Shown here one piece after another: positions 7,464 through 23,002 of a DNA stretch of 64,000 bases. Position 1 is the first letter of the stretch; each line of letters begins with the position of its first letter. Both the position numbers and the translations under genes were made by a program. The notes under the pieces are model-generated. The model made no database searches and was not told the origin of the DNA. It saw nothing but the letters and a program-made list of their open reading frames with translations. Origin of the DNA: a virus; IMG/VR virus record IMGVR_UViG_2617270923_000003, positions 1 through 64,000 of that record; one strand, given 5' to 3'.

Positions 7464-8909
7464 TTATGCAGCCGCCTGCACCTCGGCGTTGACGCGCTGC
7501 ATGGTCGAAGCGACAAAGCCAACGAGCGACTTGTGGGCGCGATCGGTAATCTGCTCCCAGGACTGGGTCGTGATGAAATCGCCGTTGCGGAAGACGACCT
7601 GGAGCTGGTTGTCGATGCCCTCGGGCAGCGCGTCCTCGCGGATGGTTTCGAATTCGCCGTCATTCATGACCACGGCGACACGACCAGCCTTGGAAGACTT
7701 CGAGGGATCCGTCGCGGGCTTCTTCTGCACGTCCTGCCAGCCATTTCCGAAGTCGATGGCATTAGCCTTCATGGCGAAGCGCTGATCGTCGCGCTTGTGG
7801 GACTGCAAGAGCCCACCACCCATGCCAAAGGCGATATTGTCGATGGAGAAGCCTTCCATCAGCATCCGGGCAACCAGGGCAGCAACAGACTGCGGCGTCA
7901 TGCCGTCGCCCTGGATGACGCGCACATGCTTGTCGAGAACCTTGAACCCCTTCGAGTTCGTGGTCCCGCCGAAGATATCCCAAAGCTTCTTGATGACCGC
8001 AACGGGCGTTTCGACCGGATCGCCGGAGTCAGGACGGATAACGAGCGTGCCGTCGATATTGAGGATCTTCTCCTTGAGCTCGTCGCCGAAGATGTTCTCG
8101 ACCGCGTTGAACAGGTCGTAACTGTCGGAGACGACCGAGAACAGACCGTGACCGAAGTTGTCGATCATATTGGAGTAGGCATCCGCTTCGCGGTCCTGAC
8201 CCCAGCTCGTCATGGTCGAATGCTCCGACGCCGGAATGGAGAAGCCGGGCATCTCCTGAGCATCGTAGTAGTGCATCGCGCCCTGAATGGCTTCGAGGGT
8301 GTCGGTGCCCTTGAAATTGACCAGGTGAGCCATACCGCCCAGCATCGCGGATTCGCCAGACGAGACTCCACGGGCGCCGAAGTCATGCAGCTTGAACGGG
8401 ATCTGACCATCCGGATCGTCGGATGAGCGCTTCAGGCCGTCATAGATGATCGCCTTGGTGATGAAGGAGATCGTCGCGACAGAGGTCGGATACCAGATGG
8501 CGCGCAACAGCGCGGTTTCGACGAAGCTCGTAAGCCACGGAACCTTCGGGTCGGTGTTCTTGACCTGGATCATCGGCGTGCCGCGCGGAACGAACGAACC
8601 TTCCGGCAGAGCCTGAATCTCAATCGGCAGGTAGCCGTCATGATGTTCAAGGATATAGCGCCAGCCTTCCTCGTTGAACGGCAGGCCGTGCTTAAGGCAA
8701 AGCTCCTTGGCTTCCACGATGTCCGCTGCCTGAATCGGCATCGTCAGGTATTCCGACAGAAACGCCTGCAAACCGAAGAAGACGGAGAACTGCGGGCGAT
8801 CCGACTGCTTGCGCGCCTCGATGTAGGAGGAGATGAACTGCGCGCCGGGCGGATACTGGTTGAAATGGGACTGCTTATAGCTGTCCGTGGACAGGATGAT
8901 GTTCCTCAC
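7464..8909 (-). CDS. nadV: nicotinamide phosphoribosyltransferase (NAMPT/NadV)
   Basis: 481 aa; matches NAMPT along its whole length (STDSYK...HDFGARG...GTDT...SIPA.EHST...IRPDSGDP...QGDG). Confidence 0.85.
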   Translation of the reverse strand: MRNIILSTDSYKQSHFNQYPPGAQFISSYIEARKQSDRPQFSVFFGLQAFLSEYLTMPIQAADIVEAKELCLKHGLPFNEEGWRYILEHHDGYLPIEIQALPEGSFVPRGTPMIQVKNTDPKVPWLTSFVETALLRAIWYPTSVATISFITKAIIYDGLKRSSDDPDGQIPFKLHDFGARGVSSGESAMLGGMAHLVNFKGTDTLEAIQGAMHYYDAQEMPGFSIPASEHSTMTSWGQDREADAYSNMIDNFGHGLFSVVSDSYDLFNAVENIFGDELKEKILNIDGTLVIRPDSGDPVETPVAVIKKLWDIFGGTTNSKGFKVLDKHVRVIQGDGMTPQSVAALVARMLMEGFSIDNIAFGMGGGLLQSHKRDDQRFAMKANAIDFGNGWQDVQKKPATDPSKSSKAGRVAVVMNDGEFETIREDALPEGIDNQLQVVFRNGDFITTQSWEQITDRAHKSLVGFVASTMQRVNAEVQAAA

Positions 8910-9949
8910 AGGTAGTCTCCCTTGAGCAAGTTGGTGATGATGGAATGATGGTCTTCGTAGAACTCAGCGGTCGTGAGCGACGCGAAGTCATACCAATCGG
9001 CATGAGCCGCATCGTCACCCGCCTTGACGGCCGGGAGTTCCACGTCGGCGGGAATGGCGAACACGAAGGCCATCGACACGATGCGACCGCGGAGAGAGCG
9101 GTTCGGGTTGTCACACAGCCACTCGCCGGCGCAGTGTTCCTCAAGTGTCTCGCGATCGAGCCCGGTCTCTTCCATCGCTTCGCGTAGCGCGGCATCGAAG
9201 AAGCGTTCGCCCTTCTCGACGAACCCGCCCGGCATAGCCTTCTGACCACGACCGGCAGCCTTGCCGCGCGTGACGAGAAGGATCTTGCCGCGATGAAAGA
9301 CGAGAGCATCGGCAGCCAGGAACGGACCGTCGCCGTAGGTCTCCTTGTCCTTGGCGAGACCGTCTTTCCAGGCGACCAGATCCTTGAAGCGCGGCGTAAG
9401 AGCAAACTCCTTGAGCCAGGTGACGACCTGCGGCGAGCAAGCGTCATGCGGCAGGCGCGGGAGCCGGCGAAGGTAATCGTCGCGGATATCGGACGCGTTG
9501 AGCGTGCCGTGCTGAATGTCGATCTGAATATTGTCCCACTGGGGAAACATATTCAGATAGTAAGACGAGGCATCCTTGCCGAAGCCGGCGAGCGCGACCT
9601 TGAAGTCGTTTAACCCATGCAGGCGAATGCCACCCTTGTTGGCGTGATTGAGGATCGCATTCTCGACGCCACGGCGCAGGTTCTTCTCCCAATCGTAGTC
9701 GTGCTCGTAATCGTAGAGCGGGACCAGGATCAGACGGCCGGTTTCCAGCTCGTGATGGAAAACCCGTGTAAACATCGCTTCGCGATCAGCGAAGGTGAAA
9801 GGGTTCTTGGGCGTGGGCGCCATGTGGCTCGAACCAACAACGACGATCAGGGTTTCAACACGCTCAAGCGCGCCGCGAATGACGGCCTCGTGGCCCAGAT
9901 GAAGAGGCTGGAAACGGCCGATGAAGACGCCGTAGTGAAAGTCGCGCAT
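8906..9949 (-). CDS. natV: bifunctional NMN adenylyltransferase / Nudix ADP-ribose pyrophosphatase (NatV-like)
   Basis: N-terminal nucleotidyltransferase motif (GRFQPLHLGH) and a C-terminal Nudix box (GG.VE.GE....A.REA.EETG). ATGA-coupled to nadV. Confidence 0.8.
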   Translation of the reverse strand: MRDFHYGVFIGRFQPLHLGHEAVIRGALERVETLIVVVGSSHMAPTPKNPFTFADREAMFTRVFHHELETGRLILVPLYDYEHDYDWEKNLRRGVENAILNHANKGGIRLHGLNDFKVALAGFGKDASSYYLNMFPQWDNIQIDIQHGTLNASDIRDDYLRRLPRLPHDACSPQVVTWLKEFALTPRFKDLVAWKDGLAKDKETYGDGPFLAADALVFHRGKILLVTRGKAAGRGQKAMPGGFVEKGERFFDAALREAMEETGLDRETLEEHCAGEWLCDNPNRSLRGRIVSMAFVFAIPADVELPAVKAGDDAAHADWYDFASLTTAEFYEDHHSIITNLLKGDYL

Positions 9950-10152
9950 CAGTGGATGCTCCTCGAAAAGCGGAAGCTGCCCTCGGCAGTCCGGATGACA
10001 TCGCCGTCGATCTCCTGGATCGGTGCGGAATAGAAGGTTCGGCCATTGAGCGTGCCGCCCACGACCTGCTTGTTGGTGCCGATATCAAGGAAGCGCGCGT
10101 TGGTGATCAGACCAAGTTCTTCCTGAACAAGCTTGACTGCTGTTGGCGGCAT
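9949..10152 (-). CDS. hypothetical protein (67 aa)
   Basis: ORF directly downstream of the promoter cassette at 10163-10190. Confidence 0.4.
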   Translation of the reverse strand: MPPTAVKLVQEELGLITNARFLDIGTNKQVVGGTLNGRTFYSAPIQEIDGDVIRTAEGSFRFSRSIH

Positions 10153-10162
10153 TGTTCCTCAC

Positions 10163-10226
10163 TAAGTAATTGCTTACTTATGTTATAGCGTGAAGAAAAA
10201 GGGAGCGCTGCGGATGATGAGCGCTC
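10163..10226 (-). promoter_or_regulatory. promoter/operator cassette copy plus 9-bp inverted repeat GGGAGCGCT...AGCGCTCCC in the upstream box
   Basis: TAAGTAAttgcTTACTTAtgTTATAGCG at 10163-10190; perfect GC-rich inverted repeat at 10199-10226. Confidence 0.5.
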
Positions 10227-10237
10227 CCTTGTTGATG

Positions 10238-10660
10238 TTAGTAAGCCGCGACGATCTTGGGTGGCGCGATCTTGAAGCCGCGCTCCTTGACCAGGCAATA
10301 GACGGCCTTCGCCTTGTCGACGGACTTGTCACCGGTGGCAGCGCCGGCAGGTAGCTTGTAGCAATTCTTACGCACACCCCAGCCCGCCTTGACGGCCTTC
10401 ATCATATCCGGATCTTCGACGCGGATTTCGCTCGGGTAGCCGTTCTTCTTGAGGAACGGCAGCACCTTCTGCTGATACTCGACCTCGCGGCGCTCGTTCA
10501 CCTTCCAGTGCGGTTCGCAGCGGGTGGACTGTGCGCCGTAGTCGCGGCACGCAAAGTCCGAAAGGTCGCGATCGTCCAGGGCGAGCGCTTGATTGGAAGC
10601 GAAACCAGCAGCGACAATCAGGCCGGCGAGAAGGAGAGACTTGACGTTCATTTGAGACAT
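10238..10660 (-). CDS. secreted Cys-containing protein (signal peptide)
   Basis: N-terminus MSQMNVKSLLLAGLIVAAGFASNQALA looks like a Sec signal peptide; four Cys residues follow. Confidence 0.5.
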   Translation of the reverse strand: MSQMNVKSLLLAGLIVAAGFASNQALALDDRDLSDFACRDYGAQSTRCEPHWKVNERREVEYQQKVLPFLKKNGYPSEIRVEDPDMMKAVKAGWGVRKNCYKLPAGAATGDKSVDKAKAVYCLVKERGFKIAPPKIVAAY

Positions 10661-10731
10661 ACCTCGTTGTTTGCGTTTCGATAATTACTTATCGCGCATT
10701 CTGAGTTGGACTTCGGCAGGGGTCTTTCGGG

Positions 10732-12186
10732 TTACGCAGCCTCTGCGGGCTGCGTATCCTTCTTGGGCTTCTTGCCCTTGTGCCACTTCATTTCGCCGGC
10801 CATGATCGAGCCACGCGGAAGAATCCGGTCGGCAATCTTGGCGAGTTCGAACTTTTCAATCTGAGCTTGCACCTGGCTTGCGTTCTTGTAGGCGCTCGGC
10901 AGTTCGGATACGTCCGGATCACCGGTGTAGAAGCGGACATCAAGGCCGGCCGTTTCACGATCCATGATCGCCTTGATCGCATTCGGGCCCAGACCGCGCG
11001 TGTCGCCGAACTCTTCCATGAGGCGCTTGATATGCGCCGTGCGGGAGAGATTGCGCCCGGCACCATGCGGTGCGAACCCGAGAGCGTTCTCGTTGTTCTT
11101 GTGCTCGGCGATCAGGATGGGCTGTGCCATATTCATCGGGATCAGCGTCAGACCCTGGTCATCCTTTGAGAAGCCCTTGAAGGACGGCGTTGCGCCCTTG
11201 GCGTGGTAGAACAGCCCGTCGGAGCGCTGAAAGACAAAATTGTGCTCGTTCCAGAACTGCCCGATGATCTGATTACCGAGCCGCTTGGCGACCAGGTTGT
11301 GAATGGCGAAGTGGTTCATCTTCGTCCAAAGGCGCAGCGCCTGAAGAGCCTGCCAGTAATCCTGGCCCACCTGGCTATCCGCCTCGATCCAGGCATTGTG
11401 CAACGGGATCCTCGGGGCGACGATCCGCGTATGGCGCTCGGCTGCAGCCTTGCCCCGCTTGTAGAGCTGACCGCCCAGCCCACGAGAGCCATGATGAGTA
11501 ACGATCGCCATCTGACCGGTCGATTCCAGCTCGCCCACGTAGAAGAAGTGATTGCCGTCACCCTGGGTCATGAAGTGGTGGATGGCGTAATCCTCCAGCC
11601 CTTTCAAGAACGGGTTGGCTTCGAAACCGTTGACCAGGCTCACAAGATCCTTGTGCTGACGAACCTCAGACGCCGTGCGCTTGCCGACGCCGAAGTGGGT
11701 CGCCTTCATGGCGATATCAAGCACATAATCGACCGGCGTGTCGCGCTTGAAGACGGAGATCGCCATCGAGCAGCAGATGTCGGCCGAGTGGAAGCCCGGA
11801 TGGATCGCGTTCTTGGTCGCAACCACGCCACCAACAGGAATCGTGCCTATCGCAGAGCCTGACGGGCAAGCGTCAGGCATGACTGCGCCGCGCTCGATAG
11901 TCGGAACGCGCATTAGCGCATCCATGTGGGCGAGGACGCCGGCGACGTTCGCCTTCTCGTCGTCACCTTCCGGCTCGATGAACTGGCCGAACGGAATGTT
12001 GTTGGTTCGCAGCGGCACACCTTCCTCGACAGCCTTGGCTGCCTGGAGCGGAAACAGCGCCTGAATGATCTCCTTGTCGGTCTTGCCGTCCTCGCGGAGC
12101 TGGCGAGCCAACGGCAGCGCTTCCTTGAACCATGCGCCAGGCTGTAAGCCCCACGCGACGAGCGTCTTGCCCGAGATATTACTCAT
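10732..12186 (-). CDS. rtcB: RtcB-family RNA 3'-phosphate ligase
   Basis: 484 aa with the conserved RtcB motifs (QGDGNHF, THHGSRGLG, FAPHGAGR, His/Cys metal ligands). Confidence 0.85.
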   Translation of the reverse strand: MSNISGKTLVAWGLQPGAWFKEALPLARQLREDGKTDKEIIQALFPLQAAKAVEEGVPLRTNNIPFGQFIEPEGDDEKANVAGVLAHMDALMRVPTIERGAVMPDACPSGSAIGTIPVGGVVATKNAIHPGFHSADICCSMAISVFKRDTPVDYVLDIAMKATHFGVGKRTASEVRQHKDLVSLVNGFEANPFLKGLEDYAIHHFMTQGDGNHFFYVGELESTGQMAIVTHHGSRGLGGQLYKRGKAAAERHTRIVAPRIPLHNAWIEADSQVGQDYWQALQALRLWTKMNHFAIHNLVAKRLGNQIIGQFWNEHNFVFQRSDGLFYHAKGATPSFKGFSKDDQGLTLIPMNMAQPILIAEHKNNENALGFAPHGAGRNLSRTAHIKRLMEEFGDTRGLGPNAIKAIMDRETAGLDVRFYTGDPDVSELPSAYKNASQVQAQIEKFELAKIADRILPRGSIMAGEMKWHKGKKPKKDTQPAEAA

Positions 12187-17253: not shown

Positions 17254-18822
17254 TCAGCCGTTCGGCTTCAAGCCACGAGCGTCGAACAGCTTCTTGAGGG
17301 TCTTGCGGCAAATATGCAGCTCAGCCTCGATCTGACGGTTCGACTTGCCTTCGGCGTGCAGCACCAGGGCGAGGGTATGCTTTTCGGGCAGTTCCTTCTC
17401 GGCCTTGGCCTTTTCGACGACCTTCTTCGACTTCTCGACCTTCTCAGGCGTCGGCTTGGCAGTTCCCTTGCCGATCTTTGACTCAGGGGAGCTCACAGGC
17501 TCGCTCGGAGCAGTCATTGCAGCGCTGATAGCGGCCGAGAGATCGCCGCTCGCAGCGGCCTTCTGAACGGCCTTGCTCGGCTTCTTCTGACGCGACAGTT
17601 CGACCTCATCCACGCGCTTGCGCAGATCGCGGATCGACACGTCGACCTTCTCCTCGATCACCTCGGGGCGATCATCGAGCGCCTTGGCAACGCCGGAGGT
17701 TCCGACATCGGCACGCGCCATCTTCTTCGCACCTTCGACCGGCGTGACGGTGACGTTTCCACCGTAGGCCGAGCCGATGTTGACGATCTCAAGGATCGAC
17801 GTGTGATTGCCCTTGATCACGTCCGCGAGCAGCTTGGATGCCTTCTCGTGTCCGGTCATCGGCTTGTTGCTGCGCAGCGTCGGGTGAACGTCAGCCGGCA
17901 GGACCGCGACGATGTGATAGCCCTTGGCGCGCATCTTGTTCGGCTCGCCGGGCGGCACAGCGATCACGTCTTCCGGCGCGACCTTGACCAGGGTGATGAT
18001 ATCGCCACTGAAGCCGGAGAGGTAGCCGCGCCGTGCGATATGCAAGCCCGTCGAGCATTCGTTGCGCCGGTTCGGGTCGACCAGCTTCTCGTCCATCTGC
18101 ACGAAGGAGCCGAGCTTCTGCGTCACCTTGCGCGAATGGCAATCGACGAAGCCGTTGGACGTGGACTGCAGCACCTTGTAGGCGACGATCGAGCCGTCAT
18201 CCGCGATCGGCAGGTCGCCCTTGCTCATGAAGTTGAGCAGCTCCTTGATAGTATGCGAGCGGCTGTCGATCACAGAGGCGATGCGCTCCATGAACTTCTG
18301 GAAGCCTGCGGCGTCCTCGCCGTGATTGATCGCATCCATGTAGGGCGTCAGCGCCTCGACACCAGGGATGACCTTGTTGTTGACGACGGCGTGCAGTTCT
18401 TCCGGCTCATATTCGACAGCCGGACCCTTGTCCTGCGGAACGTAGCGCGACGACACCGACGGCTTCGTCAGCTCCATGACCGGCGTGGGAGCCGGCGTCG
18501 GCTTGACGCTGCCCAGAACGACAGTCGTGGTCTTGGGCTCCGGCTCGCTCGGCGTGCCGCCCAGCAATGCCTTGAGCTGGGAGAAGCGGCCGCGCACGAA
18601 CCTCACGACGCCGTTGGTCTTCTCCTCGATAGTCTTCTCGATGGAGAAGGTCGCGAGGTCGATTTCCATGTGCTCGCCGCGCTTGAGAGCTTCGACCGTC
18701 TGATCGAGGATCTCCTTCGTGCGCTTGGTGTCCTTCTTGAGGTTTAGTTCCTCCCCGTTGTCGAGGAAGAGGGTAACGCCGGAATTAGATGCGATGGCGC
18801 TGAGGATCTTTACCTTGCTCAT
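17254..18822 (-). CDS. rIIB: rIIB-like protein with a C-terminal HTH-like segment
   Basis: Lies immediately downstream of the rIIA-like gene with an ATGA overlap. AAGGAGG RBS precedes the MSKVK start at 18822. Size and position match T4 rIIB. The C-terminus (LALVLHAEGKSNRQIEAELHICRKTLKK) resembles a LuxR/sigma-70 region-4 HTH. Confidence 0.55.
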   Translation of the reverse strand: MSKVKILSAIASNSGVTLFLDNGEELNLKKDTKRTKEILDQTVEALKRGEHMEIDLATFSIEKTIEEKTNGVVRFVRGRFSQLKALLGGTPSEPEPKTTTVVLGSVKPTPAPTPVMELTKPSVSSRYVPQDKGPAVEYEPEELHAVVNNKVIPGVEALTPYMDAINHGEDAAGFQKFMERIASVIDSRSHTIKELLNFMSKGDLPIADDGSIVAYKVLQSTSNGFVDCHSRKVTQKLGSFVQMDEKLVDPNRRNECSTGLHIARRGYLSGFSGDIITLVKVAPEDVIAVPPGEPNKMRAKGYHIVAVLPADVHPTLRSNKPMTGHEKASKLLADVIKGNHTSILEIVNIGSAYGGNVTVTPVEGAKKMARADVGTSGVAKALDDRPEVIEEKVDVSIRDLRKRVDEVELSRQKKPSKAVQKAAASGDLSAAISAAMTAPSEPVSSPESKIGKGTAKPTPEKVEKSKKVVEKAKAEKELPEKHTLALVLHAEGKSNRQIEAELHICRKTLKKLFDARGLKPNG

Positions 18823-21191
18823 GCTGCCTCCTTGAGGGCGGTGGTGTTGGTGTTGGCTGCGGACTTCTTGGCGGACTTCTGCTTGGCGCGGCGCTGCAGG
18901 AACTTGATCGTTTCGATCAGATCGTCGGTGAACTGATCGCCCCACTCGGACACCCGCTCATTGAGGAACCAGGCGCCGCAGATCGGATTGAGGTAGCGGA
19001 AGTGATCCTCGGCCTTGGAGATGCTCAGCGGCTTGAAGGTCTTGCCGCACGCCTTCTTGAGGCCGTCCTTAGCCTGGGTGACGATGGTCTTGGTCTCGTC
19101 CGACATGGACTCAGCGCTGGAGAGGAAGTCCCAGATCAGCTTTGCTTCCTGATGCAGCTCGCCGGGATTTGCCCGGTCGGGGAACAGGAGCTTGGCAATC
19201 CGGGGTTCCTTCTTAGCCAGCTTGAGCGCAGCCTCGACGGTCGAGGCGTGATAGGCGCTGCTACCATCGCGGATGAAACGGTCGTGCCGGATGGTCTCGC
19301 CGTAGACGACCTCGCGCTTCTTGGTGAGTTCGACCAGGCGGGCAGCCAAGACCTCGTGCAGGTTGCGGCAGCCGGCCTTCTTGAGCTTCTCCTCCTGGCC
19401 CTTCGTCGTGATGAGCGCGGTCTTCGGATAGAGCTTCATGATCTGGGCGCGGTATGCCTCGTTGAACGGCATCCGGGCGATCTCGTCGCGCTGCCAGGTC
19501 ATCATGTAGAAGGACGGATCCTCGCAGGACGCCGGATGGTCACGGTCGCGGCTCTTGTCGCTGATGTCTTCCAGGATGAAATACTTGTCGGCGCTGGTCT
19601 TGCGCACGGCAGGCTTGCGATTTGCCTTGGCCTCCTCGTAATCGAACAGCTCCAAGCTGATCTTGAAGTGGCCGCACAGTTCCTGCAGACGCTTGAGGTT
19701 CTTCTCGGTCCACTGGCGCATGACCATGCCGGGCACGTAGGTATTCTTGTCGTGGCCGTAGAACTCGCGACCCTTGAGCGCGAGCATCGGGCGCAAGTCG
19801 CGCATGTTGCGGGCAACGCACAGCACCGGATAGACGTGCCCCGAGCGTTCGTATTCGCCGATCCGCTTGGTCTTCGGTCCCGGATAGTCGTGGCGATGCC
19901 TGTAAATGTCGAACAGCATCAGCTCCTTGAGCAGGCCCATCTTCGACGCGATGCGCAGTGCCGCCGTAGAGGTGCGCTTGAAGTGCAGCTCCTTCGCATT
20001 GCCGAAGTTCTGCGGAGCGCGCCGGTAGAACCGGCGATCGTCGCGGAACATCTTCTGGGCGATCTTGTAGAGCTTGCGGCGCGTGTCGATGCCGATCCAA
20101 ACGTGGTGATGACCGTGCGTGGAGACCGCGTGGTCGGCGATCATATCGGGCGTCGACAGGATTCCTGCCGGGTAGTCGCTGCGCGGGCTGATATAGTCGT
20201 CCAACTGCAGACGGCTGCGGCTCTCAACGATCGAGGTGAGCAACCGCATGGTAGCGGGATCCAGCGCCCGCGTGATCGTCTTGATCGCCTTGTTGAGCAG
20301 GCGGTTCAACGTCTCGTCGGTGAGCGGCGAGAACGACAGCGCTTCACGCGACGGCGTGACGCCGATCGAGTTCGGAGGCGGGATCAGCACCAGGATCGAG
20401 TTCGTGCCACAAAGATTGATCGCCTCGACGGCGAGCCGGGTCATGGCGTCGTCAGTGTTGGTCAGCGGATACATGACCGTGCCGTAGAGGACGTAGACGC
20501 GGCCTTCGTTGAGCCCGATGTTCGGGATGACGCCGAACTCGTGCTTACGGGCCTCGGTGAAGTCGAAGCGCTCAAGCGGCACGCCGTTCAAGGTAGCAAG
20601 CATTCCGCCCTGCTTGACGACAGCGCGAATGTGGTTTTCGAACTCGTAGCGGTCCTTGGGCTGCTGGATCGGGATCGTGACCGTCAGACCGGTTTCGGTC
20701 GAAGCGGTGCGGAACATCTCGCGCATTTCCGGCTTGCCGTCGGTCGCGACACCACCACGGGAGATCGCATGGACGGTCTTGAGGCCGTCGTGCTGGTTGA
20801 CGATGGTGAAGTGGTCCGTCACGGCGAAAGGCGCCTTGGATCCGAGGCCGAAGCCGCCCGTCTGGTTCTCGTCCTTGACCTTGGTGGACTTGCCGTAGAT
20901 GCAATAGATCGGGTGCAGCAGCTCCAGCGGAATGCCAGGCCCGAAGTCGCGGATCTTGATCTCGGTTTCAGTGACCGTGATTTCGACCGGAACGTCGGTC
21001 TTGCCGACCATAATGTGTGCATCCCAGGCGTTGCAGATGGTCTCTCGCATCGCCGCGCGCTTCTTGTCGCGGTAAATCTTGTCGGAGAGGAGGGCATAGA
21101 GCTCAGCGGAGTCGTCCATGCCGAAGGCTTTGGCCTCGCCACCGCCGATGACGGCATGTGTGTCGAGTTCTGCGATCGTTGAAACCTGCAT
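18819..21191 (-). CDS. rIIA: rIIA-like protein (N-terminal GHKL/HATPase_c domain)
   Basis: 790 aa. N-terminal Bergerat ATPase motifs (E..NAWDA, DFGPGI, GGFGLGSKAPFAV), as in T4 rIIA. Confidence 0.7.
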   Translation of the reverse strand: MQVSTIAELDTHAVIGGGEAKAFGMDDSAELYALLSDKIYRDKKRAAMRETICNAWDAHIMVGKTDVPVEITVTETEIKIRDFGPGIPLELLHPIYCIYGKSTKVKDENQTGGFGLGSKAPFAVTDHFTIVNQHDGLKTVHAISRGGVATDGKPEMREMFRTASTETGLTVTIPIQQPKDRYEFENHIRAVVKQGGMLATLNGVPLERFDFTEARKHEFGVIPNIGLNEGRVYVLYGTVMYPLTNTDDAMTRLAVEAINLCGTNSILVLIPPPNSIGVTPSREALSFSPLTDETLNRLLNKAIKTITRALDPATMRLLTSIVESRSRLQLDDYISPRSDYPAGILSTPDMIADHAVSTHGHHHVWIGIDTRRKLYKIAQKMFRDDRRFYRRAPQNFGNAKELHFKRTSTAALRIASKMGLLKELMLFDIYRHRHDYPGPKTKRIGEYERSGHVYPVLCVARNMRDLRPMLALKGREFYGHDKNTYVPGMVMRQWTEKNLKRLQELCGHFKISLELFDYEEAKANRKPAVRKTSADKYFILEDISDKSRDRDHPASCEDPSFYMMTWQRDEIARMPFNEAYRAQIMKLYPKTALITTKGQEEKLKKAGCRNLHEVLAARLVELTKKREVVYGETIRHDRFIRDGSSAYHASTVEAALKLAKKEPRIAKLLFPDRANPGELHQEAKLIWDFLSSAESMSDETKTIVTQAKDGLKKACGKTFKPLSISKAEDHFRYLNPICGAWFLNERVSEWGDQFTDDLIETIKFLQRRAKQKSAKKSAANTNTTALKEAA

Positions 21192-21206
21192 TGTCGTCGT
21201 CTCTCC

Positions 21207-21237
21207 TATGTAATTGCTTACTTATCTCGTTATAGCG
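21207..21237 (-). promoter_or_regulatory. promoter/operator cassette copy (TATGTAAttgcTTACTTA...TTATAGCG)
   Basis: Upstream of rIIA and downstream of the tRNA island. Confidence 0.45.
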
Positions 21238-21277
21238 AATGACGCGTTGGAGTGCGTCAGGTGACGAGTGGATAATC

Positions 21278-21354
21278 TGGTTGGGGATTAGAGGAGTCGA
21301 ACCTCAACCTTGTCTGACTCGTCAGCCAGTTGCTCTGCCCTGAGCTAATCCCCA
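21278..21354 (-). tRNA. tRNA-like gene with a normal acceptor stem, D-arm and T-arm (GGTTCGACTCC) and encoded CCA, but an aberrant anticodon arm
   Basis: rc sequence TGGGGAT-TA-GCTC-AGGGCA-GAGC-A-ACTGGCTGACGAGTCAGAC-AAGG-TGAGG-TTCGACT-CCTCT-ATCCCCA-A-CCA. The anticodon region is the palindrome CTGAC-GA-GTCAG, so a 5-bp stem with a 7-nt loop cannot form. Confidence 0.4.
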
Positions 21355-21370
21355 ACATGGACACGATTTG

Positions 21371-21647
21371 ACGAAGGGTGCCTCTTAGTTCCGGGATCGA
21401 ACCGGCACACCCGTTTGTAACTGGCCTCGGACGGAGCAGGGAGCGCTGCTGTGGTCGCGATTGCTCTCGTCTAACCGCGCCGCCGAAGATGCACCAGCGT
21501 CCGATTATGCCTCGTCAATTCGAGGATTATTCCCCTAAGCCGGCCTTGTCGGCACTTGCGTAACTCCAACCCGTAAAGGTCTTGCGGAGAATGCGGGGAT
21601 GCCTGGGCTAAATCTACCTCCCAGGCTGAATCGGAGCACCCTTCGTC
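21371..21647 (-). ncRNA. ~277-nt structured RNA element closed by a 12-bp long-range helix, with a tRNA T-arm-like hairpin (CCGG-TTCGATC-CCGG) near its 3' end
   Basis: 21371-21382 (acgaagggtgc..) is the reverse complement of 21635-21646. Internal perfect hairpins include GCCTGGG/CCCAGGC, CCTCG-AATTGA-CGAGG and GAGCA...TGCTC. The element sits between two tRNA genes. Confidence 0.3.
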
Positions 21648-21654
21648 AAAAAGA

Positions 21655-21727
21655 TGGCCGGGAGGCAAGGAGTCGAACCTCGACCGCTGCCCTCCATAGG
21701 CAGTGCTCTGCCCTAAGCTACCTCCCG
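21655..21727 (-). tRNA. tRNA with anticodon UGG (Pro) and an unusual A33; encoded CCA
   Basis: rc sequence CGGGAGG-TA-GCTT-AGGGCA-GAGC-A-CTGCC-TATGGAG-GGCAG-CGGT-CGAGG-TTCGACT-CCTTG-CCTCCCG-G-CCA. Cloverleaf is clean; the anticodon loop is UAUGGAG. Confidence 0.55.
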
Positions 21728-21980
21728 GTATTTATGGTGGTGATGAGCTCCTATACCCCTCTGGCCGACTGCCAGTGATATCCGCGGTGTCAATCGCGGC
21801 CAGGGCTCCTAAGAGCTCATCACCGAAACGTTTCCCCGTTCATCCGGCCTATCAGATGGCTACTTTCGCAGCGTCCACGATCTACCCAGCGCTAGACTCA
21901 GGCGGTGGCGGGGCTTGCCTTGCGGAGCGGTGTTCAGACTCCACAAGTTCGGCGCACTTCGTTGCCCATTCGGGCGAAAC

Positions 21981-22068
21981 TGGAGATCCGGGTCGGATTC
22001 GAACCGACGAGTCCAAGAAAGGAACGGGATTTGCAGTCCCGCGCGTTCGACCACTTCGCTACCGGATC
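21981..22068 (-). tRNA. type-II (long variable arm) tRNA with anticodon GCA (Cys codons) and U73 discriminator; encoded CCA
   Basis: rc sequence GATCCGG-TA-GCG-AAGTGGTCGAA-CGC-G-CGGGA-CTGCAAA-TCCCG-TTCCTTTCTTGGACTC-GTCGG-TTCGAAT-CCGAC-CCGGATC-T-CCA. It has a 3-bp D-stem with an 11-nt D-loop and a 16-nt variable arm, as in Ser/Leu/Tyr tRNAs. The anticodon is that of Cys. Confidence 0.6.
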
Positions 22069-22298
22069 GGATGGGCTGGGACGCCAGCGACTAGGCACTG
22101 GTCTGGACCGCGGCTCCACCCTACTACCTGGGACGCTAACGCGCGCCAGGCCGTCCCAACTCGTTGAATTAACGTCCCTGGGAGTAGAAAGGACGAAACA
22201 CCTCCCAGGGACTCGCCGGGTCGCTACTCCGGTGAACAGGCGATAGGCGTGGGTTATGACGCCTCGTTTTAAGTCGCCGCTTGCGCGGCTTGATTAGC

Positions 22299-22367
22299 AT
22301 CGGGAGCGTGGAGTCGAACCACGACCGCGGATTTCAAGCCCGCCGCACTGCCCTGTGCTACTCCCGC
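22299..22367 (-). tRNA. short type-I tRNA with anticodon UGA (would read UCA Ser codons), G1-A72 mismatch, no encoded CCA
   Basis: rc sequence GCGGGAG-TA-GCAC-AGGGCA-GTGC-G-GCGGG-CTTGAAA-TCCGC-GGT-CGTGG-TTCGACT-CCACG-CTCCCGA-T. 69 nt with a 3-nt variable loop. Confidence 0.5.
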
Positions 22368-22528
22368 ATATCGACCCTAATCAGTTCTCGCTCTGCTGAT
22401 TACCCGATGCGTTCGGGACCGTCTGGGCAAAGGTGGAGCCCGATGCTGTCGAGGCGGCTTCAATGATCGGCCACACACCGGGCTCCTAGACGCCAACCCG
22501 ACGGCTGTCGGCGTCTATTCGTCAACCC

Positions 22529-23002
22529 TTACAGGCCGAAGCGAACTTCGCGGCCGCGAGGAACGATACCGCCCTGGTGAAAACGACCACCGCGGCCGGC
22601 GATCGCAGCAGCGAGAACGGAAGCGATGCCGGCAGCAGCAGCGAAGGCGTTCTCACCACCGACGTTGTAAGCTTCGTGGCCGCGCTTCAGCAGCGCCTTG
22701 AGATCGTCGTGATCGAGGTCTTCGTCATCGGCGATCGCAGCGAGGTCTTCGCGAAGGCCCTTCAGGAGCTTCTTCTGCGCCTTCACGGCCTTGTAGCGCT
22801 TGTCGATGTCGGCCTGCATGTTCAGGACTTCGCCGATAAGATGGCGCTTTTCGGCGACACGCTCGGCTTCGACGCGTTCGGCTTCGATGCGCGCGGCTTC
22901 TGCGGCAGCTTCTTCGCGTTCCTGCTTGATCGAGTTGAGCGTCGGGTCGATCTTGACGACGGTTGCGACAGCGGTATCAGCGGCCTGATTTTCGTAGGTC
23001 AT
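22529..23002 (-). CDS. hypothetical coiled-coil protein (~157 aa from MTYENQ)
   Basis: ATG at 23002 with AAGGAAC RBS. Central Glu/Ala/Arg-rich coiled coil; Gly/Ala-rich C-terminus. Confidence 0.5.
   Translation of the reverse strand: MTYENQAADTAVATVVKIDPTLNSIKQEREEAAAEAARIEAERVEAERVAEKRHLIGEVLNMQADIDKRYKAVKAQKKLLKGLREDLAAIADDEDLDHDDLKALLKRGHEAYNVGGENAFAAAAGIASVLAAAIAGRGGRFHQGGIVPRGREVRFGL

Follow-up and report, generated by a model that had tools for sequence, protein, structure and literature searches.

A compact tRNA-shaped gene with a changeable anticodon arm in an RNA island of Rhizobium phages, possibly a non-decoding tRNA mimic

The viral DNA considered here, referred to as the window, is the 64,000-nucleotide (nt) stretch from position 1 to 64,000 of IMG/VR record IMGVR_UViG_2617270923_000003, which is part of a 120,504-bp phage contig (OCMJ01000001.1, assembly GCA_900215255.1, 'Rhizobium sp. 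AN5'). The phage belongs to the RHph_X66 (X66), B1VFA, V1VFA-S and RHEph10 group of Rhizobium phages, and its minus strand holds nearly all genes as well as all four tRNA-type genes. These four genes, located within 1.1 kb of one another, form together with conserved hairpins a 1.3-kb island of structured noncoding RNA (21192 to 22528, minus strand) next to rIIA/rIIB. Upstream, the island is bordered by an open reading frame (ORF) of 157 amino acids (aa) and unknown function (22529 to 23002, minus strand), a gene call of the source record with homologs P0001 to P0012 and no Pfam family, and downstream by a homolog of rIIA (18819 to 21191, minus strand) that matches the annotated rIIA of Rhizobium phages. 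Our subject is the first of the four tRNA-type genes, at 22299 to 22367 on the minus strand, which carries the anticodon UGA and is called here the UGA gene.

ARAGORN reported a tRNA at exactly this position and on this strand, with anticodon tga and the label tRNA-Ser, and the Rfam tRNA model (RF00005) matched it along its full length, model positions 1 to 71, with 46.4 bits against a gathering score of 29 (E value of 1e-6 for the 64-kb window). The gene reads from a 5' acceptor strand GCGGGAG through UA into a 4-bp D stem (GCAC/GUGC) with a 6-nt loop (AGGGCA), and continues after a single G with a 5-bp anticodon stem (GCGGG/UCCGC) around the loop CUUGAAA, a 3-nt variable loop (GGU), a T stem (CGUGG/CCACG) around UUCGACU, the 3' acceptor strand CUCCCGA, and U73 as discriminator (22299). 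The acceptor and T stem are in a 7/5 configuration, the former with 6 bp plus a mismatch between G1 (22367) and A72 (22300), which is the sole nonstandard pair among 21; the gene is followed by GCU, and no CCA is encoded. The anticodon loop is a canonical one of 7 nt (C32 U33 U34 G35 A36 A37 A38, with the anticodon at 22336-22334), and the universal tertiary set is complete (U8, A14, G18/G19, U33, G53, U54 U55 C56, A58 and C61). An earlier note on this DNA had described a compact class I cloverleaf of 69 nt with exactly this loop, the G1-A72 mismatch and the missing CCA, and all of these were confirmed by direct reading, the cloverleaf also by ARAGORN and Rfam. The fold energy of the gene is ordinary (z = -1.09), and its minimum free energy structure departs from the cloverleaf by no more than a slip of one base in the acceptor and T stems. 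What argues for more than a chance cloverleaf is the covariance-model score together with the compensatory changes seen in homologs. A different strand or fold was also considered and rejected, as ARAGORN and Infernal agree on a single register on the minus strand only; no better-scoring alternative with a conventional anticodon, as the earlier note had allowed for, emerged from either program.

Homologs of the ORF upstream of the island led to four sister phages (L023, L024, L025 and L026), each of which has an ortholog of the UGA gene in the same position, flanked by the same leader and trailer. The set available for comparison is small, with five orthologs (the window copy included) and about a dozen island-bearing phages. 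Between the window and L023/L024, its two nearest sisters, the acceptor (including G1.A72 and U73), the D arm, the T stem, the 18-nt leader and the 15-nt trailer are identical, and all seven substitutions of the arm region fall within 18 nt (22327 to 22344, minus strand) that comprise position 26 and the anticodon arm, the only hypervariable segment of the gene. Over 124 nt only one further difference is found, the replacement of A58 by U in the T loop (22314). As the island background is 30 mismatches in about 1113 positions (window versus L024, leaving aside two divergent blocks described below), seven mismatches in 18 nt represent a strong local excess.

The arms of the orthologs differ in kind as well as in sequence. 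L023 and L024 have GCGGU/ACCGA, that is, a G.A pair plus 4 bp, around a 6-nt loop (AUUGAA), from which ARAGORN extracts a two-base 'anticodon' (tg), and their Rfam score is 37.2 bits. The orthologs of L025 and L026 are called Gln-UUG and have noncanonical arms, with a 5-nt loop or an A33 loop in the former and an A33 loop in the latter, and the anticodon calls thus shift among 'tg', 'ttg' and 'tga' across the set. L026 has in addition a wholly different, perfectly paired acceptor stem and C73. U58 is found in L023, L024 and L026 (the window keeps A58), the G1.A72 mismatch is kept in four orthologs, and none of the four sister copies encodes CCA. Over the five orthologs, variable columns make up 11 of 17 in the arm versus 16 of 52 elsewhere (p = 0.02), and neither the anticodon nor its loop is conserved, unlike in the class II tRNA of the same island (3 of 17 arm columns, see below). 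Because arm sequence, register and loop length all vary between sister phages, the UGA 'serine' anticodon is a recent state present in this phage only, and not a conserved decoding identity. By the same comparison, the body and flanks are under strong purifying selection, since they are 100% identical to those of L023/L024 while the neighbouring ORF has diverged to about 80 to 85% identity and a drifting pseudogene would change everywhere; the anticodon arm, on the other hand, is free to change.

The flanks of the gene have a structure of their own. The leader (22368-22386) and trailer (22291-22298, both minus strand) contain the complementary motifs GAUUAG and CUAAUC, and where the leader of L026 has G in place of U, its trailer has changed correspondingly, which amounts to one compensatory change for a leader-trailer helix. 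Leader bases can also pair with an upstream AAUCAG, making two mutually exclusive helices possible, and the consensus fold favours this competing upstream hairpin.

Further homologs were found within the phage group. Compared with the copy in L007, the UGA gene shows six double compensatory changes, two wobble-compatible ones and none that is disruptive. The copy shared by L007 and L018 has an 8-nt anticodon loop, G73, CCA in register and the same G1.A72 mismatch, and of the 8 differences between these two phages over 874 nt, three, at position 26 and in the 5' half of the anticodon loop, share a span of 9 nt. B1VFA lacks the UGA-gene copy, with nothing in the first position after the ORF, and X66 carries there a degraded copy (31.9 bits) with broken acceptor pairs. 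The L019 copy is in better condition than that of X66 and is called Leu-CAG, with C33. The L019 (1846-1918) and L001 (3656-3725) genes have the D-loop AGGCCA and the T-loop UUGGACU, and L019 and X66 show C19:G56 in place of the universal elbow pair G19:C56, a tertiary covariation that is rarely seen. A GA dinucleotide is kept in every loop of the class I family, which we record as an observation and not as proof of anything. The earlier note had named a decayed pseudogene in homologous phages as what would undo its reading, and this turned out to be so in X66 and, in part, in L023/L024 (U58, G.A pair, 6-nt loop). The window copy itself does not show the features of a pseudogene, as 20 of its 21 pairs are standard, the invariant nucleotides are kept and the changes are confined to the arm.

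Two more class I genes of the island have the same D-loop AGGGCA and T-loop UUCGACU as the UGA gene, which makes the three of them paralogs. One (21655 to 21727, minus strand), detected by ARAGORN and Rfam, would be a 'Pro UGG' tRNA with the loop UAUGGAG, G73 and an encoded CCA, with A33 in place of the universal U33 and with A37, where a tRNA-Pro would normally have G37. The body is unchanged in its orthologs, which present UUCAGAG (Leu CAG) in L025 (4795-4867) and UCUGGGU on a new, compensated stem in L026 (4807-4879), and variable columns are again concentrated in the arm (13 of 17, versus 9 of 53 elsewhere; p = 1e-5). The other paralog (21278 to 21354, minus strand; Rfam 33.2 bits) has an 8-nt anticodon loop (CUGACGAG), A73, CCA and an extra nucleotide at the junction of T stem and acceptor, and ARAGORN labels it 'tRNA-???'. 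It is present in L025 (4885-4960), is absent as an alignment gap from L024 and has no aligned counterpart in L026. Taking the homologs together, we regard the UGA gene as a genuine and, to judge from its conservation, selectively maintained tRNA-shaped RNA gene that belongs to a phage-specific compact class I tRNA-like family of this clade of ~120-kb Rhizobium phages.

Searches beyond the clade returned little. An exact-pattern scan for the UGA gene found no copy in IMG/VR and none in metagenomes, and the equivalent scan for the class I family in IMG/VR retrieved only L007/L012. The only pattern match in GTDB was rejected as an unrelated tRNA array of a Myxococcota metagenome-assembled genome with the D-loop AGGGCA in common; this array (L013 5581-7944, on an 8.8-kb contig) packs 15 tRNA genes into 2.4 kb, has AGGGCA in its tRNA-Asn, and looks like a phage or mobile tRNA array. 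With blastn the UGA gene gave nothing informative in phages, plasmids or Escherichia coli genomes, and a search of metagenomes for rIIA-based loci provided one distant locus. The 15-mer of the anticodon arm (CGGGCTTGAAATCCG) had 96 matches in IMG/VR, roughly what chance would produce in so large a collection, and a single one was located in a tRNA. This is a class II tRNA with anticodon UGA (L032 965-1066, minus strand), U73 and an unusually long variable arm of ~31 nt, which ARAGORN missed.

We then considered which amino acid, if any, the UGA gene could carry. The long variable arm of tRNA-Ser is found everywhere except in animal mitochondria, and serine identity rests mainly on it (PMC9976931). 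The UGA gene has a serine anticodon (NGA or GCU) but neither the long arm nor G73, and with a 3-nt variable loop and U73 in the place of these defining features it falls, as far as its sequence tells, outside tRNA-Ser; the earlier note was right to consider the body unfit for bacterial serine identity. No other synthetase's identity set appears to fit it either. The acceptor end (G1, C2-G71, G3-C70 and U73) is Gly-like by what we take to be the glycine set, with an anticodon that lacks C35 and C36. A glycine identity was discarded for this lack and because the acceptor stems of the L007 and L026 homologs are unrelated, and the resemblance of GCGGGAG/U73 was treated as a coincidence. Bacterial initiator tRNAs are characterized by a 1:72 mismatch, three G-C pairs at 29-31/39-41, A11:U24 and a CAU anticodon. 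The UGA gene has the 1:72 mismatch and GGG at 29-31, but its 31:39 pair is G.U, its 11:24 pair C-G and its anticodon UGA, and the initiator-like features are also not conserved in the homologs, so this candidate was set aside as well.

The fourth tRNA-type gene, whose cysteine anticodon on a type II body the earlier note had pointed out, is real: it is a class II tRNA (21981 to 22068, minus strand) with anticodon GCA, U73 and an encoded CCA, detected by ARAGORN and scoring 61.3 bits with Rfam. It is found in eight phages, with homologs at L002 3471-3557, L019 2583-2669, L020 9649-9735, L021 1586-1672, L023 2112-2199, L024 4426-4513 and L026 4338-4425, and its loop (YUGCAAA) varies only at position 32 (C or U). 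Variable columns are 3 of 17 in the arm versus 25 of 68 elsewhere, and five orthologs display six compensatory stem pairs. Its acceptor, anticodon and T stems covary, and the changes in the stem of the variable arm are wobble-compatible. All this is the behavior expected of an ordinary, selected decoding tRNA, which it appears to be. A long-arm tRNA-Cys is unusual in its own right; X66, L007 and RHEph10 have instead a tRNA-Cys(GCA) of class I. U73 and GCA are the main determinants for cysteinyl-tRNA synthetase (CysRS) (PMC5389517), so cysteine is the likeliest identity, and since long-arm tRNAs with U73 can be substrates of seryl-tRNA synthetase (SerRS) (PMC5389517), charging with serine may also occur. 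A possible recoding was evaluated by codon-to-residue alignment of 40 window genes against relatives. UCA was aligned with Ser in 69 of 111 cases (62%), compared with 59% for UCC and 62% for UCG, and UGC was aligned with Cys in 60%, with Ser not among the eight commonest alternatives; there was no recoding signal at UCA or UGC in these genes. UCA is a rare codon in the phage (3.3 per 1000 codons, 6% of Ser codons), and the codon CCA is found at 1.3 per 1000.

The conservation of the RNA genes extends to the island as a whole. In most 40-nt bins the window is 97 to 100% identical to L024, well above the adjacent ORF, which suggests that the island RNAs matter to the phage. The exceptions are two blocks, 22070-22167 and 22495-22526, the first of which looks replaced (49 mismatches in ~98 nt). 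The island is also accessory, since all of it is missing in L003 and V1VFA-S. Its spacers are strongly structured (fold z scores of -2 to -3), although no Rfam family other than tRNA was matched in them at an E value of ≤5. A scan of the island for sigma-70 promoters found none, and its three terminator-like matches are about as many as chance alone would produce. A structured RNA of 94 nt and unknown family (21736 to 21829, minus strand) lies in the spacer upstream of the UGG paralog and is 83% identical to its counterpart in B1VFA, with five compensatory pairs in a three-helix fold; a 15-bp outer helix surrounds two hairpins, the RNA is also found in L002 (3626-3719) and L019 (about 2100-2200), and it has no match in Rfam. 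Downstream of the UGA gene there is an 11-bp hairpin (22174 to 22212, minus strand), conserved across the phage group by sequence comparison and by fold: its arms GUCCCUGGGAG...CUCCCAGGGAC recur in all island-bearing relatives, among them L001, L002 and L019, and the base changes preserve pairing. A short hairpin, GCCCGAAUGGGC, preceded by GUUUC, comes after several of the CCA ends. Finally, a perfect 15-bp long-range helix (21367-21381/21636-21650) encloses a 254-nt spacer between two tRNA-like genes, within which a T-arm-like motif, CCGGUUCGAUCCCGG (21391-21405), may represent a further structured RNA or the remnant of a tRNA.

Elsewhere in the window, an RtcB RNA ligase (10732 to 12186, minus strand; Pfam PF01139, E value of 1.9e-25) lies beside an NAD-salvage module, both within 7464-12186 on the minus strand, the module consisting of NMNAT/Nudix (8906-9949) and nicotinamide phosphoribosyltransferase (NadV, 7464-8909) genes. 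RNA repair by RtcB and NAD salvage are typical counter-defence functions. The phage also encodes an HD-domain protein and an RNase T-like exonuclease, and its relative X66 has an additional RNA ligase of the Rnl type.

A conserved tRNA-shaped RNA whose anticodon arm is without decoding constraint suggests a tRNA mimic that can be neither serylated nor used in decoding, a reading to which we give somewhat less than an even chance (roughly 45%). Transcription would be shared with the rest of the island, and processing would release a stable, tRNA-like RNA. SerRS would not charge it, given the absence of the long variable arm and U73 instead of G73, and the G1.A72 mismatch would make it a poor ligand of EF-Tu. 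In initiator tRNA, a 1:72 mismatch is what weakens binding to this factor. Such a mimic would present an exchangeable stem-loop of the anticodon type, in this phage that of tRNA-Ser(UGA), on a stable tRNA scaffold. Its most plausible role would be in the conflict between phage and host over tRNAs, as bait or competitor for some anticodon-loop-binding or -cleaving enzyme. The setting points this way, with an accessory island located next to rIIA/rIIB in a phage with RtcB and NAD salvage and with a further RNA ligase in its relatives. In tRNA-Ser(NGA), VapC cuts at the anticodon's GA, and a role of phage tRNAs against tRNA-targeting defences has been put forward (PMC10264068). More specifically, the scaffold might carry rapidly exchanged arms, each baiting the anticodon-loop nuclease or tRNA-binding defence of the host at hand, the present one being an unchargeable tRNA-Ser(UGA) decoy whose cuts RtcB could reseal, but this extension is speculative and we consider it unlikely.

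Several observations weigh against a non-decoding mimic. The arm is fully canonical in this phage (5 bp, 7-nt loop, Y32, U33, A37 and A38), a condition that by rough estimate would arise by chance alone in ~2% of cases per lineage, and the window copy retains A58, unlike L023, L024 and L026. Together, the canonical arm and A58 could mean that the ability to decode has been regained. The 8-nt-loop and UGG paralogs encode CCA, which is normally there for aminoacylation. Odd loops alone are no proof of non-decoding, since functional tRNAs with 8-nt loops exist, such as the yeast mitochondrial tRNA-Thr (PMC7609411). Neutral drift in a segment free of constraint, and not diversifying selection, could account for the divergence of the arm (7 of 18). 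The gene is also dispensable, being absent in B1VFA and decayed in X66.

Some of these points lead to what we see as a possible, if rather unlikely, alternative, namely that the gene is a working elongator tRNA for UCA (perhaps also other UCN codons), newly functional in this phage, its arm having been rebuilt or taken over from a true tRNA-Ser(UGA). The host would add the CCA, after which the tRNA would receive serine or some other amino acid. Besides the canonical stem-loop and the complete set of universal nucleotides, seven clustered substitutions turn a noncanonical arm into a perfect one, which looks like a copied patch or like selection, and a possible kind of donor is illustrated by L032, a real class II tRNA(UGA) from IMG/VR with nearly the same arm (CGGG-CUUGAAA-UCCG). 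The UGA and UGG anticodons of the island also match rare A-ending codons, UCA and CCA. Phage T4 supplies tRNAs for such rare codons, and its tRNA-Ser and tRNA-Pro work without an encoded CCA. However, bacterial SerRS should reject a body without long variable arm and G73, with no other identity set that fits; the orthologs are not decoders; G1.A72 is kept in four of them and none has CCA; and UCA, rare as it is, still behaves as a serine codon in the phage's own genes.

It is doubtful, in our view, that the gene is a dispensable remnant, i.e., a duplicated phage tRNA gene drifting towards loss, with a 'Ser' anticodon that arose by an accident of register. The empty position in B1VFA and the loss of the whole island from V1VFA-S and L003 would be in line with this, as would the X66 copy, whose acceptor pairs are broken and which differs from L019 at roughly the background rate, and the L023, L024 and L026 orthologs, in which A58 is gone and the anticodon stem contains a G.A pair. 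Moreover, the common loop core UUG(A) can be read as UG, UUG or UGA depending on the register. Yet the window copy has no disruptive change, its one mismatch being also present in orthologs, and the purifying selection suggested above for body and flanks is not what a gene on its way out would experience.

Improbable too is a role in RNA processing or stability, in which the tRNA shape would serve only as an entry site for RNase P or RNase Z, or as a protective end, and direct the cutting of the island transcript into its structured RNAs. On this view any hairpin would do as anticodon arm. RNase P reads the acceptor/T-arm stack and the elbow. These are the parts conserved here, with an unconstrained anticodon loop and flanks as conserved as the body, and the tRNA-like units alternate with conserved structured RNAs and hairpins on one strand. 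The proposal leaves unexplained the CCA encoded in register by the paralogs, the maintained 5-bp anticodon stem, and the three changes within 9 nt between the nearly identical L007 and L018.

The deliberate manipulation of serine and cysteine decoding by a class I UGA and class II GCA pair with swapped identities, as advanced by the earlier note, is very improbable and a coupled swap is not supported, because although both genes are real, adjacent and each joins its anticodon to a body of the 'wrong' class, and although SerRS can accept long-arm tRNAs with U73, the GCA tRNA has no UGA partner in seven of its eight phages, the UGA state is unique to this phage, U73 and GCA point to CysRS, UCA and UGC correspond to Ser and Cys in relatives at normal rates, and the UGA-gene orthologs are partly decayed.

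Phage tRNAs have usually been seen as codon supplements or, lately, as nuclease-resistant replacements, and the anticodon is central in both views. Here, in two paralog lineages and several phages, the tRNA body and flanks are constrained and the arm is the least conserved part, the opposite of the tRNA(GCA) in the same island. If the RNA proved to be expressed and uncharged, nature would here provide a clear example of a tRNA that serves as scaffold or mimic, not as adaptor, in phages equipped with RNA repair and NAD salvage. A word of caution also follows for annotation, as isotype calls from single phage genomes ('tRNA-Ser', 'tRNA-Gln', 'tRNA-Pro' and 'tRNA-Leu') can be artefacts of the loop register.

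Among known RNAs, canonical tRNA-Ser(UGA) has the same CUUGAAA loop on a 5-bp stem, but the UGA gene differs from it in the absence of a long arm, in its 4-bp D stem and 6-nt D-loop, and in U73, G1.A72 and the missing CCA. The YrlA RNAs are bacterial Y-RNA-like molecules with tRNA-like domains, encoded next to rtcB. The UGA gene would resemble them as a non-decoding mimic of the tRNA elbow and acceptor in a genome with RtcB, and differs in being a complete cloverleaf. A Y-RNA/Ro60 link to RtcB was examined and rejected: no Y-RNA was matched by Rfam in the island at an E value of ≤5, there was no Ro60/TROVE protein among those scanned, and the 536-aa protein encoded beside RtcB in X66 matches no Pfam family and is missing from the window. 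The yeast mitochondrial tRNA-Thr(UAG), which has an 8-nt loop, derives from tRNA-His (PMC7609411) and offers a parallel for the remoulding of a tRNA body that gains a new anticodon and an unusual loop size, but in that case the reassignment is stable and has a dedicated synthetase, whereas the UGA-gene family shows no stable state across sister genomes.

Also comparable are the allo-tRNAs and irregular tRNA polycistrons described in soil bacteria and alpha-proteobacterial phages by Mukai et al. 2017 (PMC5389517), some of which do not function in translation, with a regulatory role or a link to toxin-antitoxin systems suggested for them. Like those polycistrons, the island clusters tRNA-like genes in which anticodon and identity do not match (UGA on class I, GCA on class II, an A33 loop and an 8-nt loop), although in allo-tRNAs the acceptor/T stems are 8/4 or 9/3 and the variable arm is long, unlike the 7/5 configuration and 3-nt variable loop of the UGA gene. 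As for function, that phage tRNAs counter tRNA-targeting defences is the hypothesis of van den Berg et al. 2023 (PMC10264068), and tRNAs with which phages evade the retron and PARIS defences are the subject of further papers. The UGA gene likewise lies in an accessory region of a lytic phage, has its changes concentrated in the loop, is accompanied by RtcB repair and is poorly explained by codon supplementation. The tRNAs of van den Berg et al., however, retain their anticodon and synthetase identity and decode, while in the UGA gene anticodon, loop length and register vary on a mismatched body from which the serine elements are absent, so it does not qualify as a nuclease-evading tRNA, which would keep the isotype and anticodon of the host. 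By analogy, the UGA gene would work most like the defence-evading phage tRNAs and yet lack the very feature that defines them.

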